Assembly: GCF_042648905.1 (NCBI RefSeq)
Contig: NZ_JBHRYH010000021.1
Coordinates: forward strand, 107,657 to 171,656
From: Vogesella amnigena
GTDB taxonomy: Bacteria > Pseudomonadota > Gammaproteobacteria > Burkholderiales > Chromobacteriaceae
Length of the DNA: 64,000 bases
Direction of reading: 5' to 3'
A program made the position numbers and the translations under genes. Of the stretch, positions 15,165-57,302 are shown piece by piece; the first letter of the stretch is position 1, and every line of letters starts with the position of its first letter. Below the pieces are notes generated by a model. The model worked only from the letters and a program-made list of their open reading frames with translations. It made no database searches and was not told where the DNA came from.

Positions 15165-15248
15165 GGGGCACAGGCGGGTAGAGAAACAATCGTTGCATTC
15201 TACACCAGCGCCACTGCCCCCCTGCGGCCAACCTTGGTGGCTATCGAC

Positions 15249-15906: not shown

Positions 15907-16137
15907 CTAGTGCGCATGAAACAGGCCGCGATGCCCGGCTGTGCCGTCATCTGCAACTCGCCGCTTGCCGGCGCGCAGCTTGTCCCATGCTTTTTCGTGA
16001 AAATAGTAGGCCACGGTATTGACCATGGGCTCCACCAGCGCCAGCAGGCTTGCCACGCCGAAACTGCCAGTGAGCAGATAGGCCACACTGAATGCCACGC
16101 TGAAATGGCAGATGGCGAAGGTGATGGTCTTGATCAT
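15907..16137 (-). CDS. DUF2061-family small membrane protein
   Basis: MIKTITFAICHFSVAFSVAYLLTG...EPMVNTVAYYFHEKAW matches the DUF2061 pattern. Start trimmed to the internal ATG. Confidence 0.6.
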   Translation of the reverse strand: MIKTITFAICHFSVAFSVAYLLTGSFGVASLLALVEPMVNTVAYYFHEKAWDKLRAGKRRVADDGTAGHRGLFHAH

Positions 16138-16292
16138 GGCTGGCTCCCGGCATATGGCTATCGAACTTGTTGCAATGATAGCCGCCACCGCTCAATAGTG
16201 AAAATTGAAGGGTTTTAGCGGTGCGATAGTCATAATGCTTTCGCATCAGCACAAAGGGCGAGCCTTGCGGCCCGCCCTTTGGCTTCCCTATC

Positions 16293-16318
16293 GCCTGCGG
16301 CCAACCTTGGCTGCAGCC
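16293..16318. repeat. REP-like palindrome CTGCGGCCAACCTTGGCTGCAG
   Basis: Member of the window-wide TGCGGCCAAC...GTTGGCCGCA palindrome family. Intergenic. Confidence 0.7.
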
Positions 16319-16320
16319 AT

Positions 16321-16459
16321 AAAAAACCCCGGTTTCCAATCAAGCTAATTCGCGGCGAGACAAGGCGCGAACGGAAAATCCCGACGCCACATAGATTTGC
16401 TATGTAAGGAGGGATTTTTCGTGAGCAACGCAGTATCGCAACGAAAGCGGGCGTTTTTC
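16321..16459. repeat. Copy A of a roughly 125-bp duplicated intergenic element, immediately 3' of the 2OG oxygenase stop
   Basis: Shares GCGAGACAAGGCGCGAAC ... GTAAGGAG ... TTTTTCGTGAGCAACGCAGTATCG ... ACGAAAGCGGG with copy B. On the + strand it carries an SD plus a GTG mini-ORF. On the - strand it carries a TTGCTC-N16-TACATA promoter-like motif. Confidence 0.7.
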
Positions 16460-17302
16460 TTACATCTTCACGCCCAGCTCGCGCAGACGCTCGCTCAGAT
16501 AGGCGCCGGCGGTGTAGCGCTCGGACAGCACCACCTCGTCACGCGGGTGCAGGAACAGCGGTAGCGACACCCGGCTCTTGCTGGCGCCCTCGCCAGTGGG
16601 GTTCACCACCCGGTGCTGGGTGGACGGGTAGTAGCCGCGCGAAGCCTCGCACAGCATGTCGCCGATATTGATGATCAGCATGCCGAAATCGCACGGCACA
16701 TCCACCCAGTTGCCGTTCATGTCCTGCACTTGTAGGCCCGGCTCGTTGGCCGCCGGCAGGATGGTGAGCAGGTTGATGTCGCCGTGCGCAGCGGCCCGCA
16801 GCGAGCCGGCCGGTTCGTTGCCGGTCAGCGGCGGGTAGCGCAGCACACGCAGCAGGGTCTTGTTGCTGCCCTTGATCATGTTCGACAGCGGCTCGCTGTA
16901 ATGCTGCGCGATGTCGGCCGGGGTGTACTGCTCCACCCAGCCCAGCAGCTCCTGCGCCAGGGTGTTGGCGGTGTCGTAGTAGCGCATGGCGTCGTCTTTC
17001 AGCTGCGCCGGGATGCGCCCCCACGGGTAGATGTGGAAGTATTCCTTGATGTCCTTCTGGGTGTGACCCTTGGCTGTTTCGGAGATCTCCGGCGAGAAGT
17101 AGCCATCCTGCTTTTCCACCGAGAAGGCAAAGTCGTGCTTCTGCTCGCTGCCGAAGAAGGCCAGCCAGTCGCGGTAGATCTTTTCCACCAGATTCTGCGG
17201 AATGGGGTGGTTCACCAGCACGCCGAAGCCGGTTTCGTGCAGCGAGCGGGTGAACTGTTCGGCCGCATCGGCGGCGCGGTAATCGACTACGCGTACGTTC
17301 AT
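16460..17302 (-). CDS. 2-oxoglutarate/Fe(II)-dependent oxygenase (isopenicillin-N-synthase-like family)
   Basis: 280 aa. HGD...H facial triad region (AAHGDINLLTIL; STQHRVVNP). DIOX_N-like N-terminus. Confidence 0.85.
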   Translation of the reverse strand: MNVRVVDYRAADAAEQFTRSLHETGFGVLVNHPIPQNLVEKIYRDWLAFFGSEQKHDFAFSVEKQDGYFSPEISETAKGHTQKDIKEYFHIYPWGRIPAQLKDDAMRYYDTANTLAQELLGWVEQYTPADIAQHYSEPLSNMIKGSNKTLLRVLRYPPLTGNEPAGSLRAAAHGDINLLTILPAANEPGLQVQDMNGNWVDVPCDFGMLIINIGDMLCEASRGYYPSTQHRVVNPTGEGASKSRVSLPLFLHPRDEVVLSERYTAGAYLSERLRELGVKM

Positions 17303-17643
17303 GATGTCTATCCTGTAGCTGGCGGCAGGCCCGTGGGTACGGACATGCGAAGGCGGCGGATTCTACGCGCTGCCACCTCGCAAGAAAAGTACCCGATATG
17401 ACTTTCCATTGGCATTTTAATGTTGCTACACCACTGGTAATGGCACTTTTCAGCAATATGGCATAGTTGGCTGTTTTTGCTTGGCTTTCCGTCGAAACGG
17501 CCGGCACAGCCGCGCCAGACAAGGTCTGCACGCCATACCATACACAACACCATTGGCATTTTTGTTGCCCGCCACAGGCAAGAAAAAAGCCGTGCAGCGT
17601 TGGCCGCACGGCTTGTTGCCCACCGCGTCAGTTCGGGGTACCT

Positions 17644-17768
17644 CGAAAAACCCTGATTTCTAAGCGAGACAAGGCGCGAACAAAAAATTTCGACGCAGCA
17701 TATGGCTGATATGTAAGGAGAAATTTTTTGTGAGCAACGCAGTATCGTGACGAAAGCGGGAGCTTTTC
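17644..17768. repeat. Copy B of the roughly 125-bp duplicated element, immediately 3' of the cysE stop, followed by a minus-strand terminator hairpin
   Basis: See copy A. The embedded mini-ORF here is VSNAVS-stop. A minus-strand Rho-independent terminator (gccgtgc...gcacggc + T-tract) lies at about 17585-17626. Confidence 0.7.
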
Positions 17769-17775
17769 GAGCCCA

Positions 17776-18558
17776 TCAGACGCGCTGATCCATGTCTAGT
17801 GCCGGCGTGCCCGGACAAAGCTGCGCCACCACCTTGGCCGGAACGCCCACCACCGTGGTATGCGCCGGCACGTCGTCCAGCACCACGCTGCCAGCGCCCA
17901 CCTTGGCGCACTCGCCCACGCGGATATTGCCCAGTACCGAGGCGCCGGCGCCCAGCATCACGCCATCGCCAATCTTGGGATGACGGTCGCCGCGCTCCTT
18001 GCCGGAACCGCCGAGGGTGACACCGTGCAGCATCGACACGTTGTTGCCGATCACCGCGGTCTCGCCCACCACCACGCCAGTGCCATGGTCGAGCATGACA
18101 CCGTGGCCGATTCTGGCCGCCGGGTGAATATCGGCGCCCATTACCTCGGAGATGCGATTCTGCAGAAAATACGCCAGTGTCTTTCTGCCCTGCTGCCACA
18201 GCCAGTGGGTGATGCGCTGGCTCTGGATGGCATGAAAGCCCTTGAAATACAGCAGCGGCGTGGAATAGCTGTCGCAGGCCGGGTCGCGCTCGAAGCAGGC
18301 GGTAATGTCGGCGCGCGCGGCCTCGATGATGCCGCTGTCGGCGGCATAGGCCTCGCGGAACAATTCCAGCAGCGCACGGGCGTCCATCACCGGGCTGGCA
18401 AGTTTGCTGGAGAGGTGAAACGCCAGCACGTCTTCCAGCGTGCCGTGGCGCAGCACCGTCATGTGCAGGAAGCTGGCCAGCAGCGGTTCGTCACGCGCCG
18501 CCTGCTCTGCTTCCTGGAGAATCGAGGACCACAGTGGGTCGCTGTTTACTTCTGTCAT
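17776..18558 (-). CDS. cysE: serine O-acetyltransferase
   Basis: Colinear with E. coli CysE (STPLLYFKGFHA...DIHPAA.IG.G.MLDH.TG.VVGETAVI; hexapeptide repeats). AGGAG RBS 9 nt before the chosen ATG (MTEVNSD). Confidence 0.9.
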   Translation of the reverse strand: MTEVNSDPLWSSILQEAEQAARDEPLLASFLHMTVLRHGTLEDVLAFHLSSKLASPVMDARALLELFREAYAADSGIIEAARADITACFERDPACDSYSTPLLYFKGFHAIQSQRITHWLWQQGRKTLAYFLQNRISEVMGADIHPAARIGHGVMLDHGTGVVVGETAVIGNNVSMLHGVTLGGSGKERGDRHPKIGDGVMLGAGASVLGNIRVGECAKVGAGSVVLDDVPAHTTVVGVPAKVVAQLCPGTPALDMDQRV

Positions 18559-24306: not shown

Positions 24307-24331
24307 ATGCGGCCAACGTTGGCCGCAAGCC
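24307..24331. repeat. REP-like palindrome CATGCGGCCAACGTTGGCCGCAAG
   Basis: Perfect family member. Intergenic. Confidence 0.7.
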
Positions 24332-32577: not shown

Positions 32578-32603
32578 CCTGCGGCCAACGTTGGCCGCAG
32601 GCC
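32578..32603. repeat. REP-like palindrome CCTGCGGCCAACGTTGGCCGCAGG between the SPFH gene and rtcB
   Basis: Perfect 10-bp arms. Confidence 0.7.
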
Positions 32604-49392: not shown

Positions 49393-49427
49393 GACCGCCA
49401 TCATCGAGGGATGGCGGTCTTTTTTTG
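49393..49427 (+). terminator. Rho-independent terminator after prpE (GACCGCCAT-...-ATGGCGGTC + T7)
   Basis: 9-bp stem and T7 tract, then REP copies. Confidence 0.7.
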
Positions 49428-49475
49428 CGGCCAACGTTGGCAGACAACTCTGTTGCGGCCAAGGTTGGCCGCAAG
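49425..49475. repeat. two adjacent REP-like copies (TTGCGGCCAACGTTGGCAGAC ; GTTGCGGCCAAGGTTGGCCGCAAG)
   Basis: Tandem family members immediately after the prpE terminator. Confidence 0.65.
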
Positions 49476-49560: not shown

Positions 49561-49666
49561 CCGTGTAAAACGGTATGCCCCAGGTTTTAAGCCACCGCAT
49601 GTTTGAGCCGCGCGACGCTAGCGCGCGGCGAGTTCGGTGGCGCCTGGGGCTTGCCGTTTTGCACGG
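49561..49666. repeat. long imperfect inverted repeat (about 35-bp arms) enclosing a GC-palindrome (CCGCGCG-ACGCTAGC-GCGCGG): about 106-bp cruciform/long-hairpin element
   Basis: Arms CCGTGTAAAACGGTATGCCCCAGGTTTTAAGCCACCG / CGGTGGCGCCTGGGGCTTGCCGTTTTGCACGG. Further palindromes at 49711-49737 (TTAAGGGGG...CCCCCTTAA) and GTGATCAC at about 49796. Confidence 0.45.
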
Positions 49667-49820
49667 GGTTTCGAGCAGCCCCAGATAGAGCCAGCCGGAG
49701 CCGGGGATTGTTAAGGGGGCCGCGGTGGCCCCCTTAACCTGTCCGCCGGGCGGAACCGGCATCAAAATCATCATCCGCGAAGCGGATTCAGCTAAGTGAT
49801 CACCATTTAGCCGCAAGACC

Positions 49821-56483: not shown

Positions 56484-57302
56484 ATGCCCAACCTCCCCGC
56501 CTCCAGCTGGCCTGCCATATTGCTGCTGGCCGCCGCCAGCCTGGCATTGCTAGGCGCGCAGCGCCGCTGCGGCCTGCTGCTGCTGGCGATCAGCCTGCCG
56601 ACAGCGCTGTGGGGCGGCTGGATGAGCCTCTCCGCGCTGCCGCCACTGCTGCTGGCCGCCGTGCTGCTACCGCGCCAAGGGCTACGGCCTGGCCCTGTTA
56701 CGCTGGCCGTATTGTGGCTGCTGGCCCTGGCGCTGGGGCTGCACCTGCTGCCCGGCTTTGCCAGCAAGACGCTGTGGCAGGGGCAGCTGGCAGTGGACAG
56801 CAGCCCCTACCTGCTGCGCTGGAGCCTGGACAAGCTACTGGCTGGCTGCCTGCTGCTCCTGCTCTATCCGGAGTGGCGTCCAGCTTGCGGCCAACGTTGG
56901 CCGCAACTGTTGGCCGCCACCCTGTTGCTGGCACTGGCCGCCATAGCCGCGCTGTTGCTGGGGCTGGTACGTATCGATATGAAATGGCCGCAGTGGTGGC
57001 CTTACTGGCTGGCTGGCAACCTGCTGCTCACCAGCGTGGCGGAAGAAGCATTGTTCCGCCGGGCGCTGCCACAGCTACTACCCGCAGCCTGGCCCCCGTT
57101 GCAACGAATAGTGGTCTGCAGCCTGTTGTTCGGTCTGGCCCATGCCGCCGGTGGTCCGGCATGGGTGCTGTGCGCAGCCATCGCCGGCATGGCCTATGCA
57201 CTGATCTATCGTGCCGGCGGCTGGCTGGGCTGGGCCATCCTCACGCATGTCGCCTTCAACAGCCTGCACCTGGCGCTGCTGAGTTATCCGCAGTTGCAAT
57301 AG
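56484..57302 (+). CDS. CPBP-family intramembrane metalloprotease (CAAX protease / Abi-like)
   Basis: Motif 1 EEALFRR, motif 2 FGLAHAAG (FxxxH), motif 3 HVAFNS (HxxxN) in the C-terminal 110 aa. Multiple N-terminal TM helices. ATG after AGGAAA; the track ORF begins at an upstream TTG. Contains an in-frame REP copy. Confidence 0.75.
   Translation: MPNLPASSWPAILLLAAASLALLGAQRRCGLLLLAISLPTALWGGWMSLSALPPLLLAAVLLPRQGLRPGPVTLAVLWLLALALGLHLLPGFASKTLWQGQLAVDSSPYLLRWSLDKLLAGCLLLLLYPEWRPACGQRWPQLLAATLLLALAAIAALLLGLVRIDMKWPQWWPYWLAGNLLLTSVAEEALFRRALPQLLPAAWPPLQRIVVCSLLFGLAHAAGGPAWVLCAAIAGMAYALIYRAGGWLGWAILTHVAFNSLHLALLSYPQLQ
56884..56918. repeat. REP-like palindrome (CTTGCGGCCAACGTTGGCCGCAACTGTTGGCCGCC) located inside the CPBP protease reading frame
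   Basis: Translates in frame as ...PACGQRWPQLLAA... within the CDS. Confidence 0.65.

Follow-up and report, generated by a model that had tools for sequence, protein, structure and literature searches.

Two repeats at gene ends in Vogesella amnigena as probable independent insertions of a hairpin-forming, seemingly undescribed betaproteobacterial MITE

REP sequences are 20-40 nt long, occur as REPIN doublets and leave no target duplication. Insertion sequences of the IS5 group duplicate 4 bp at TA-centred, YTAR-like targets, and some Correia copies carry an IHF site and promoters. Correia/NEMIS elements are about 105-155 nt long, exist as long and short variants, give rise to long-hairpin transcripts and are frequently co-transcribed with their neighbours (PMC3184786, PMC2229807). 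The hosts of ERIC elements are Enterobacteriaceae and Vibrionaceae (PMC10969869), and their role in mRNA has been covered in reviews (PMC2229807, PMC3184786, PMC10969869); in Yersinia, ERIC alters mRNA decay (PMC2229807, PMC10969869). The family that we describe here shares with ERIC/IRU/RU-1 the nature of non-coding imperfect palindromes of 127-141 nt that reside between genes in transcribed DNA, in many cases shortly after the 3' end of a gene. Both also have a conserved central core, variable ends and size variants that arise through internal insertions and deletions.

In the window, that is, the whole 64-kb stretch of Vogesella amnigena DNA that was analysed, a repeat occurs twice, and both copies adjoin the ends of minus-strand genes. 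The repeat finder matched 16355-16459 to 17664-17768 (105 nt, 83% identity), and two 18-mers common to the copies each occur exactly twice in the window (chance, 0.14 and 0.07), so that the duplicated element reported in the first-pass annotation is real. These 18-mers are the left core block GCGAGACAAGGCGCGAAC, at 16355-16372 in copy A and 17664-17681 in copy B, and the right core block GTGAGCAACGCAGTATCG, at 16421-16438 and 17730-17747, all on the plus strand; the positions in copy B come from the count of 18-mer occurrences. Alignment carries the similarity between the copies outwards. Copy A (16322-16459, plus strand), as defined by the covariance model CM R1, the alignment with V. oryzae and the hairpin, is a long variant with a 15-nt insertion, TCAAGCTAATTCGCG, at 16340-16354 (plus strand). 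According to the alignments this insert is the mark of a long sub-variant, and it is also found in V. oryzagri and V. facilis copies (L034, L042, L045, L077). Copy B (17636-17774, plus strand), for which CM R1, the empty site, the TIR search and the hairpin were used, belongs to the short variant of ~141 nt. The search with CM R1 returned two copies in the window, copy B at 17634-17776 (130.3 bits, E=2e-28) and copy A at 16310-16470 (113.9 bits, E=1.6e-24). A point absent from the first-pass annotation is that each copy folds into a long, imperfect hairpin of ~140 nt, with -51.2 kcal/mol (z=-4.66) for copy A and -46.0 kcal/mol (z=-4.67, plus strand) for copy B. Both copies directly abut stop codons. 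Copy A ends at 16459, next to the TAA stop (16460-16462) of a gene for a 2OG-Fe(II) oxygenase, isopenicillin N synthase-like according to Pfam (16460-17302, minus strand). Copy B adjoins the TGA stop (17776-17778) of cysE, which encodes a serine acetyltransferase with Pfam SATase_N and Hexapep domains (17776-18558, minus strand), and this stop lies within the presumed target duplication. The contact with stop codons had been recognised before, yet copy B truly ends at about 17774-17775, and the previously noted end at 17768 was 7 nt short.

Comparison with V. oryzae sheds light on the origin of the two copies. Both are missing from this close relative (locus L089) at the same, otherwise alignable sites. 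Relative to the empty site, the whole insertion at copy B spans 17633-17775, i.e. 143 nt made up of a 139-nt element and 4 nt, and copy A is a 138-nt insertion in place of 9 nt (GGTTGGCAG) of V. oryzae sequence. Complete members of the family carry a further pair of inverted repeats on the outside. In copy B the left one, GGGTACCTCG, is intact and the right one is damaged (CGAG--CCC), and the flanking target duplication has diverged, agreeing at 2-3 of 4 positions; in copy A both outer repeats (~10 nt each) are gone and there is no target duplication. Both copies are decayed and probably immobile now. They are different sub-variants with a mutual identity of 81%, whereas copy A reaches 88% and copy B 92% identity with copies from other species. 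Since each is closer to foreign copies than to its neighbour, independent insertions are indicated rather than local duplication. Copy B would have inserted between the cysE stop codon and the native terminator, and copy A right after the oxygenase stop codon. That two copies in the same orientation flank a single gene might point to local duplication or to a composite transposon, and the first-pass annotation had indeed raised the possibility of a repeat flanking an acquired oxygenase gene. However, cysE and the oxygenase gene are adjacent without elements in V. oryzae, in other Vogesella and in Chromobacterium violaceum. Oxygenase homologues are 83-100% identical in Vogesella, Chromobacterium, Aquitalea and Paludibacterium (98% in V. 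oryzae; 83-95% across the family of genera). Because the cysE-oxygenase synteny is older than the insertions, the oxygenase gene is not acquired cargo; with copy A also lacking TIRs and the two copies being distinct sub-variants, the chance that a composite transposon or a local duplication produced this arrangement is next to negligible. We consider it very probable that the two repeats arose independently, as insertions of a non-autonomous, non-coding MITE, the whole of which is an imperfect palindrome. That the window copies themselves have moved is what the family as a whole and the V. oryzae comparison suggest, precise loss in V. oryzae being formally possible.

The family was collected by a scan with the exact left 18-mer, GCGAGACAAGGCGCGAAC, which identified 76 loci, about 59-60 of them with the full ~141-nt element. 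The hosts are Vogesella, Niveibacterium, Gallionellaceae, Nitrosomonadales, Rhodocyclaceae and Burkholderiales genomes. Some genomes hold several dispersed copies: there are at least 19 in the MAG MFD04651.bin.1.182, four in V. oryzagri, and five full-length copies together with a short, internally deleted one in V. facilis. Requiring an exact 18-mer amounts to biased ascertainment, and the covariance model finds more copies that do not have it. The conservation of the left 18-mer is thus overstated, because retrieval demanded it, whereas the family-wide conservation of the right block GTGAGCAACGCAGTATCG is independent of the scan pattern. Copies are 137-158 nt long (~141 nt, or ~156 nt with the 15-nt insert), have no coding capacity and are of the small size typical of MITEs (about 100-400 bp). 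In 43 of 57 copies the two TIRs agree at no fewer than 9 of 12 positions. The ends are lineage-specific and define three subfamilies, with the TIRs GGGCGCCTCGAAAAA, GGGCGCCTCTAAAAA and GGAAGCTCTGATTTA, the outer arms of which are wholly different between subfamilies and complementary within each. In the family alignment, 86.8% of cells are paired and 28 pairs show double changes, and none of 500 shuffles reached the observed value. The element is an imperfect palindrome of ~141 nt, and its core, including the right-hand block GAGCAACGCAGTATCGCGACGAAA, is far more conserved than its ends. At the gathering threshold Rfam recognised only a tRNA in the window, and at a permissive threshold it gave nothing for the element at E<=10 except an 18-nt chance match, so that identity with an Rfam RNA family was rejected. 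Scanning viral contigs with the 18-mer gave a single chance hit, which the covariance model does not recognise, and blastn of the Vogesella-type (type-1) consensus against the plasmid collection gave no match. We found no ERIC-like element or MITE in the literature on Betaproteobacteria, Vogesella or Gallionella. The hairpin-forming betaproteobacterial MITE family seems to have been undescribed until now, and it adds to the known MITEs one that extends across Betaproteobacteria.

The family spreads by a cut-or-copy-and-paste process with a 4-bp target duplication. Exact 4-bp direct repeats flank 16 of 43 clean copies, compared with 1.8 +/- 1.2 expected from permuted flanks (maximum 7 in 5000), although in both window copies the duplication is degenerate. 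The favoured targets are TA-centred tetranucleotides such as TTAG, CTAA, CTAG, TTAA and ATAA. All 61 copies examined for position (61/61) are intergenic. In roughly 38 of them the stop codon of a flanking gene is no more than about 30 nt away, and in at least 16 it lies exactly at the junction. Among the earlier suggestions was a small mobile repeat, and the TIRs, target duplications, many copies elsewhere and V. oryzae empty sites bear it out. The first-pass annotation had also held that many copies in varied intergenic contexts would identify a MITE family, which is what we observe at the level of the family. Both window copies adjoin stop codons because in many copies the stop lies in or beside the duplicated TA-centred target. 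The gene ends themselves, with their TAA, TAG and TGA-containing sites, are suitable targets; in-gene insertions are lost, the survivors pile up at stop codons, and the target duplication regenerates the stop codon. A 4-bp, TA-centred target together with its duplication thus gives a mechanical reason why repeats end at stops, and this may be useful to annotators.

As for the enzyme, the transposase might be of the DDE type, provided in trans and possibly IS5-like. It is hypothetical because the autonomous partner was not found: about 420 kb of fetched flanking DNA held no autonomous IS with matching TIRs, blastn of the type-1 consensus drew a blank in the plasmid collection, and a search of the fetched loci for solo TIRs or a longer parent element yielded only decayed halves and internally deleted mini-copies. 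The IS5 group and the family have in common the 4-bp duplication, TA-centred targets and ends starting with GGAAG. IS5-like ends, GGAAGGTGCGAA(T/C)AAG, match the type-3 TIR GGAAGCTCTGATTTAT at 10 of 16 positions, a similarity that is weak after multiple implicit comparisons. A difference is that the fetched flanks of the family held no transposase gene whose ends match. Correia/NEMIS of Neisseria, being betaproteobacterial MITEs, resemble the family in the size and hairpin features given above, and are set apart, by description only, by their 24-26-bp TIRs and TA duplication. REP/REPIN-RAYT systems share with the family short, palindromic, intergenic and multi-copy repeats, but a stand-alone element of ~141 nt that makes 4-bp duplications does not fit them, and this identity was rejected. 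Integron attC sites, which follow the ORFs of cassettes arrayed beside an integrase, were likewise rejected: the outer arms do not fit the RYYYAAC / GTTRRRY boxes, and the copies are single, dispersed, in both orientations and located by housekeeping genes.

The position of copies directly after stop codons, often between convergent genes (11 copies), raises the question of whether the element could be a portable terminator-like module acting after the preceding gene, comparable to the pneumococcal SPRITE. An A-run and a T-run border the hairpin in two subfamilies, those of Vogesella and Gallionella, and the minus-strand end of copy A reads GGGGTTTTTT. The T-run, however, is base-paired with the A-run inside the stem, and the terminator scan did not call the elements, so that the element was rejected as an intrinsic terminator; other copies are found within operons or shortly before a start codon. 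Moreover, native hairpins exist downstream of both window copies and are present in V. oryzae, where the element is missing. The intrinsic terminator of cysE (17587-17614, minus strand; terminator scan and V. oryzae alignment) lies downstream of copy B, in agreement with the earlier report of a minus-strand terminator there (17614-17587). Downstream of copy A there is a GC-rich hairpin (16252-16281, minus strand; inverted repeat I16 and V. oryzae alignment), which is terminator-like and has no U-tract. A terminator-like role of the element is, on these grounds, quite improbable.

The motifs inside the copies had led to another proposal, namely that they form a shared cis-regulatory cassette, with a minus-strand promoter for the oxygenase gene and the DUF2061 gene (15907-16140, minus strand; Pfam), or a plus-strand mini-ORF preceded by a Shine-Dalgarno (SD) sequence. 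The motifs are indeed there. The SD-like TAAGGAG followed by GTG is present as described, the GTG lying in the right core block, which on the minus strand contains the TTGCTC hexamer, and both copies have the TTGCTC-N16-TACATA arrangement; promoters are also borne by some MITEs, such as Correia (PMC3184786). As a promoter, however, this arrangement fails the scan, since the -10 candidate lacks the final T that the scan demands at the end of the second hexamer, and a better promoter-like site for DUF2061 was predicted outside the element, at 16204-16175. A terminator lies between copy B and the oxygenase gene. The mini-ORF reads VSNAVS-stop in copy B and is read through in copy A, just as reported, but it is not conserved in the family: of 57 copies, 43 have the start codon and 14 lack it, and the length varies, with 25 of the 43 encoding 4-19 aa and the other 18 exceeding the extracted segment. 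The motifs belong to the conserved family core, which occurs beside unrelated genes, in varied intergenic contexts and in both orientations, and V. oryzae keeps the genes without the element. The proposal of a common cassette has accordingly been abandoned, and we regard it as very improbable. Returning to the MITE reading, the meaning of the locus is small: cysE, the oxygenase gene and the DUF2061 gene have no dedicated common regulatory device, and the oxygenase gene is no recent acquisition.

A further question is whether the hairpin might have been exapted as an RNA element, for instance as an mRNA stabiliser or destabiliser, a binding site for RNase III/E or a protein, or a source of sRNA. 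The functional part would then be the asymmetric core with its TAAGGAG internal loop, and mobility would be secondary. The core is near-invariant in Neisseriales, Nitrosomonadales, Rhodocyclales and Burkholderiales, whereas the outer arms have been replaced wholesale, and neutral MITE decay would not lead one to expect such invariance over four orders. The inner stems show compensatory changes too, and the plus strand gives the better fold in 53 of 57 copies (G.T versus A.C, 205 vs 97). Many copies sit within 3' UTRs or operons, and the influence of ERIC on mRNA decay in Yersinia (PMC2229807, PMC10969869) offers a precedent. On the other hand, orientation relative to the flanking gene is unbiased (17 same, 23 opposite), and for both window copies the orientation is the less stable one (z=-2.3 to -2.6). 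Strand asymmetry can come from a master copy, selection is not needed for homogenising palindrome arms, and part of the conservation of the left block stems from the ascertainment. Neither site holds the element in V. oryzae, and Rfam has no matching family. Taken together, exaptation as an RNA element is unlikely. As MITE copies, A and B may be co-transcribed as long 3'-UTR hairpins in their less stable orientation, and they would at most modulate mRNA stability, as ERIC does in Yersinia.

The family probably represents a branch of the ERIC/IRU superfamily in Betaproteobacteria. The evidence for this link is a bridging Citrobacter element together with a modest match to the covariance model. 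The bridging element, located between sdhB and sucA (L031), contains the exact 18-mer. With the 18-mer masked, it scores z=3.0-5.5 against the beta consensus, a score equalled by 0-4 of 1000 shuffles in eight of nine tests and by 19 of 1000 in the ninth, and it scores z=12-14 against the published ERIC consensus. CM R1 aligned end-to-end to the canonical E. coli ERIC gives 22.9 bits on one strand and 5.9 on the other, unrelated hairpins also reaching 21-28 bits. Directly compared, the beta family and ERIC give pairwise z values of only about 0.1-2.8. No significant match was obtained with nhmmer between the beta profile and ERIC or between the ERIC profile and the beta loci, and all complete E. 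coli genomes were free of blastn matches to the Vogesella-type consensus. By eye, ERIC and the family share collinear blocks: CTCT..A..TTCGAGTT; GCGA.CAAG.CG...GAA; GC.TA...TAAG; and GTGAGC(G)AACGCAG. ERIC is an imperfect palindrome of ~127 bp built around a conserved central inverted repeat, and the ~141-nt element of the family has the same form. There are also clear differences. The ends of the family are GG(G/A)...(C/T)CC with a 4-bp duplication, whereas those of ERIC are TATAC...GTATA with flanking 5'-TA-3' (PMC2229807 Table 1), and the stems adjoining the core are A/T-rich in the family but CCCCAGG/CTGGGG in ERIC. Except for the bridging Citrobacter copy, all hosts of the family are Betaproteobacteria, in contrast to the Gammaproteobacteria of ERIC. 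By its ends and hosts the family falls outside ERIC as defined. If the link holds, the ERIC superfamily reaches beyond Gammaproteobacteria, and co-occurrence analysis could seek the enzyme that moves ERIC-type elements.

It would be tempting to go further and regard the asymmetric core of ~70 nt (GCGAGACAAGGCGCGAAC ... GTAAGGAG ... GTGAGCAACGCAGTATCGCGACGAAA) as an ancient functional module common to the family and ERIC, with the MITE as its vehicle. Such a module would have stayed nearly unchanged in at least four betaproteobacterial orders and recognisable in Enterobacteriaceae, its terminal repeats having been exchanged. It might be kept through recognition by a conserved trans-acting protein (a host-encoded or domesticated transposase, an RNA-binding or an RNase factor) or as a structured RNA. 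We consider this idea rather unlikely, but if it were true, the family would offer a route to the long-missing partner of ERIC.

No record matched the oxygenase or the DUF2061 product in exact-protein look-ups, and the look-up with the cysE product returned only short Logan contigs, which break within the element. An unrelated REP-like family, GCGGCCAACCTTGG, is also present in the window.

The repeat that the first-pass annotation had noticed 3' of two consecutive minus-strand genes is real. The repeat finder returned a 105-nt pair with 83% identity in the window (16355-16459 and 17664-17768), pairwise alignment widens the similarity beyond this pair and places an additional 15 nt in copy A (16340-16354) relative to copy B, and each of the two 18-mers reported there has exactly two occurrences in the window, where 0.14 and 0.07 would be expected. 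Copy A spans 16322-16459 and adjoins the stop codon of the 2OG-Fe(II) oxygenase gene (16460-17302); copy B spans 17636-17774 and adjoins that of cysE (17776-18558). A DUF2061 gene lies at 15907-16140, all three genes being identified by Pfam and located on the minus strand. The terminator proposed to follow copy B was likewise called, at 17614-17587 on the minus strand. Two Logan contigs with an identical cysE (L001 at 6719, L002 at 1581) both end within copy B, about 124 nt past the cysE stop, which is what a repeated element, or a hairpin that interrupts assembly, would produce in those samples.

A scan of one genome per species with the left core block GCGAGACAAGGCGCGAAC yielded 76 loci. 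Seventeen of these are isolated chance matches, and the remaining 59 hold about 60 copies of the element, in which a second conserved block and the flanking inverted repeats keep the same register. The hosts are V. facilis, V. oryzagri, V. fluminis and V. margarita, a Niveibacterium MAG, Gallionellaceae and other Nitrosomonadales, a Rhodocyclaceae MAG, several Burkholderiales and unclassified proteobacterial MAGs, and one Citrobacter; MAG MFD04651.bin.1.182 alone has at least 19 copies. The window belongs to Vogesella amnigena, to judge from an oxygenase of 100% identity. No description of this Vogesella/betaproteobacterial family was found in the literature searched. A 57-copy alignment resolves three subfamilies, in all of which an almost invariant core is enclosed by outer arms (GGGCGCCTCGAAAAACCC..., GGGCGCCTCTAAAAATTCAAA... 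and GGAAGCTCTGATTTATTTCGAG...) that are wholly unlike between subfamilies and complementary within each. The covariance model built from the family alignment gives exactly two real matches in the window (130 and 114 bits) and, in the fetched loci, a few further copies without the exact 18-mer. Size variants are either internally deleted (67-95 nt) or internally expanded (174-191 nt); they include L058 4928-5004, L077 3900-3996, L059 2651-2717, L013 836-1026 and L062 2453-2626. The mini-copies keep both terminal repeats, and other variants carry apical insertions of 45-70 nt. The ends of L059 are of subfamily-3 type, and its Gallionella genome contains a subfamily-2 copy as well; in a Gallionellaceae MAG (L003) two copies stand in tandem 28 nt apart (2176-2321 and 2350-2501; 153 and 80.5 bits).

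This family is a mobile element, as one of the earlier suggestions had it. With copy ends set by the inverted repeats, an exact 4-bp direct repeat flanks 16 of 43 clean copies, whereas flanks permuted among copies yield 1.8 +/- 1.2 (at most 7 in 5000 permutations). Examples are TTAG, TTAA, TTGA, CTAA, ACTA, ATTA, ATAA, TAAC, TGAA and GGTA; several CTAG duplications, mis-scored by the automatic boundary, add to this count. Moreover, both insertion sites are empty in V. oryzae, whose oxygenase is 98% identical. At site B its sequence runs ...GTCTGA|GCTGATGCG... after cysE, directly into the shared terminator, where the window has 143 extra nt (17633-17775), that is, the 139-nt element plus 4 nt. 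At site A, 9 nt follow the oxygenase TAA in V. oryzae compared with 138 nt (16322-16459) in the window.

One of the earlier readings had a duplication of the repeat flank an acquired oxygenase gene. Copies in V. oryzagri and V. facilis are 88% identical to copy A, whose 15-nt insert recurs in a V. facilis copy and three other Vogesella copies; copy B is 92% identical to another species' copy, in V. facilis. Since A and B match these foreign copies better than each other (81%), a composite or local duplication is out. The oxygenase is not cargo either: cysE and the oxygenase gene are neighbours in V. oryzae and Chromobacterium violaceum, where the elements are absent, another Vogesella lineage, also free of elements, has them separated by a DUF1835 gene, and the protein is 83-95% identical across Vogesella, Chromobacterium and related genera. 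Gene content beside the conserved cysE-oxygenase pair does differ among Vogesella. In V. oryzae (L089 4021-6096) an acyltransferase (PF01757 + SGNH) separates the oxygenase gene from the DUF2061 gene and is lacking in the corresponding interval of the window, 16140-16460. Another lineage (L081-L088 2118-2894) has cysE and the oxygenase gene separated by a DUF1835/DUF3658 gene and no DUF2061 gene.

A crude ORF call puts all 61 copies examined between genes, and about 38 of the 61 have the end of a flanking gene within about 30 nt. At least 16 copies have the stop codon precisely at the junction, within the duplicated tetranucleotide, the same position that the cysE TGA and the oxygenase TAA occupy. 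Preferred targets are TA-centred, TAA and TAG among them. Duplication of such a target restores the stop codon and leaves the gene unharmed, and insertions at other positions in coding sequence would be lost to selection. The abutment of A and B on stop codons thus follows from TA-centred targets and a duplication regenerating the stop, with no need for regulation. Relative to the abutting gene, 17 copies have the same and 23 the opposite orientation, and no strand-specific role of the element is evident. Neither the proposed promoter nor the mini-ORF is supported. The minus-strand promoter motif, TTGCTC-N16-TACATA, belongs to the family core and fails a promoter scan, which places a better promoter-like site for the DUF2061 gene outside the element. 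As to the Shine-Dalgarno/GTG mini-ORF, the start codon is present in 43 of 57 copies, and the frame is 4-19 codons long in 25 of these 43, the other 18 running past the end of the extracted segment. The original observation was correct and its interpretation excessive: the feature is of an ordinary kind, two relic MITE insertions.

Both copies form long imperfect hairpins that are more stable on the plus strand (A, -51.2; B, -46.0 kcal/mol; z about -4.7 against shuffles) than on the transcribed minus strand (-45.0 and -37.6 kcal/mol; z -2.3 to -2.6), so that both are transcribed in the weaker-folding orientation. The plus strand folds better in 53 of 57 family copies (G.T versus A.C, 205 to 97), an asymmetry that can be inherited from master copies. 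When the hairpin structure of a single copy is imposed on the family, 86.8% of cells are paired and both partners have changed in 28 pairs; neither any of 500 shuffles nor any slid register came near the observed value. No Rfam family matched the element. Copy B retains its left repeat GGGTACCTCG, has a 2-3-nt deletion in the right one and has only partly matching flanks (TGAT/CGAA, gene strand), and copy A lacks about 10 nt at each end; because of this damage both are probably immobile relics. Each lies between a stop codon and a native hairpin older than the insertion (16252-16281 for A, 17587-17614 for B) and should therefore be transcribed as a 3'-UTR hairpin. ERIC elements in Yersinia reportedly expose RNase E sites and destabilise upstream transcripts in an orientation-dependent manner (PMC2229807, PMC3184786, PMC10969869), and such an effect may serve as a candidate model to test for the window copies.

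The layout of the family resembles that of ERIC/IRU, with a central core that is conserved, ends that vary more, variants of different size and a placement 3' of genes; it differs in its ends, in its 4-bp rather than TA flanks and in host range. Collinear blocks are common to the family, canonical E. coli ERIC and the published ERIC consensus (PMC2759123). In direct comparison the covariance model aligns ERIC end to end, scoring 22.9 bits on one strand against 5.9 on the other, where unrelated hairpins give 21-28 bits on both, and pairwise z is only 0.1-2.8; nhmmer profiles gave no family-ERIC match in either direction, nor did blastn of the Vogesella-type consensus find anything in all complete E. 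coli genomes. The sdhB-sucA spacer of Citrobacter sp. NCU1 contains an element (L031, ~823-1000) in which the exact 18-mer occupies the homologous position. With the 18-mer masked, this element still scores z=3.0-5.5 against the betaproteobacterial consensus, a score that 0-4 of 1000 shuffles reached in eight of nine tests and 19 of 1000 in the remaining one. Its relation to ERIC is clear (z=12-14), and so is that of an element in the E. coli rplA-rplJ spacer (L079 295-421; 87 of 5426 genomes; z=18-32). Both are divergent ERIC-type elements and look intermediate between canonical ERIC and the family. The transitive link through Citrobacter is the stronger argument for the tie, the direct one being weak; membership in an ERIC superfamily is therefore reasonably probable rather than established. 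In this family, as in ERIC, the asymmetric core shows extreme conservation between orders even though the terminal repeats have been exchanged; there is a small chance that selection maintains this core for a conserved protein- or RNA-level role. The GGAAG... termini and TA-centred 4-bp duplications also recall the IS5 group, with 10 of 16 positions, by the analyst's own count, identical between IS5-like ends and one subfamily's repeat. No partner transposase was found in the fetched loci, and blastn gave no match in the plasmid collection.

The window also holds a separate REP-like short repeat, GCGGCCAACCTTGG, at 25 sites (up to 2 mismatches; 1.6 expected), for example 15224-15237, 16297-16310, 24309-24326, 32581-32598, 49427-49472 and 56887-56904. 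Its copies often form overlapping inverted pairs; one directly adjoins copy A and two flank the DUF2061 gene. Adjoining other REP-like copies is a 107-nt imperfect palindrome at 49561-49667 (CCGTGTAAAACGGTATGCCCCAGG ... CCTGGGGCTTGCCGTTTTGCACGG), which the MITE covariance model matches weakly on both strands (about 21-24 bits) and which is therefore a different hairpin element.
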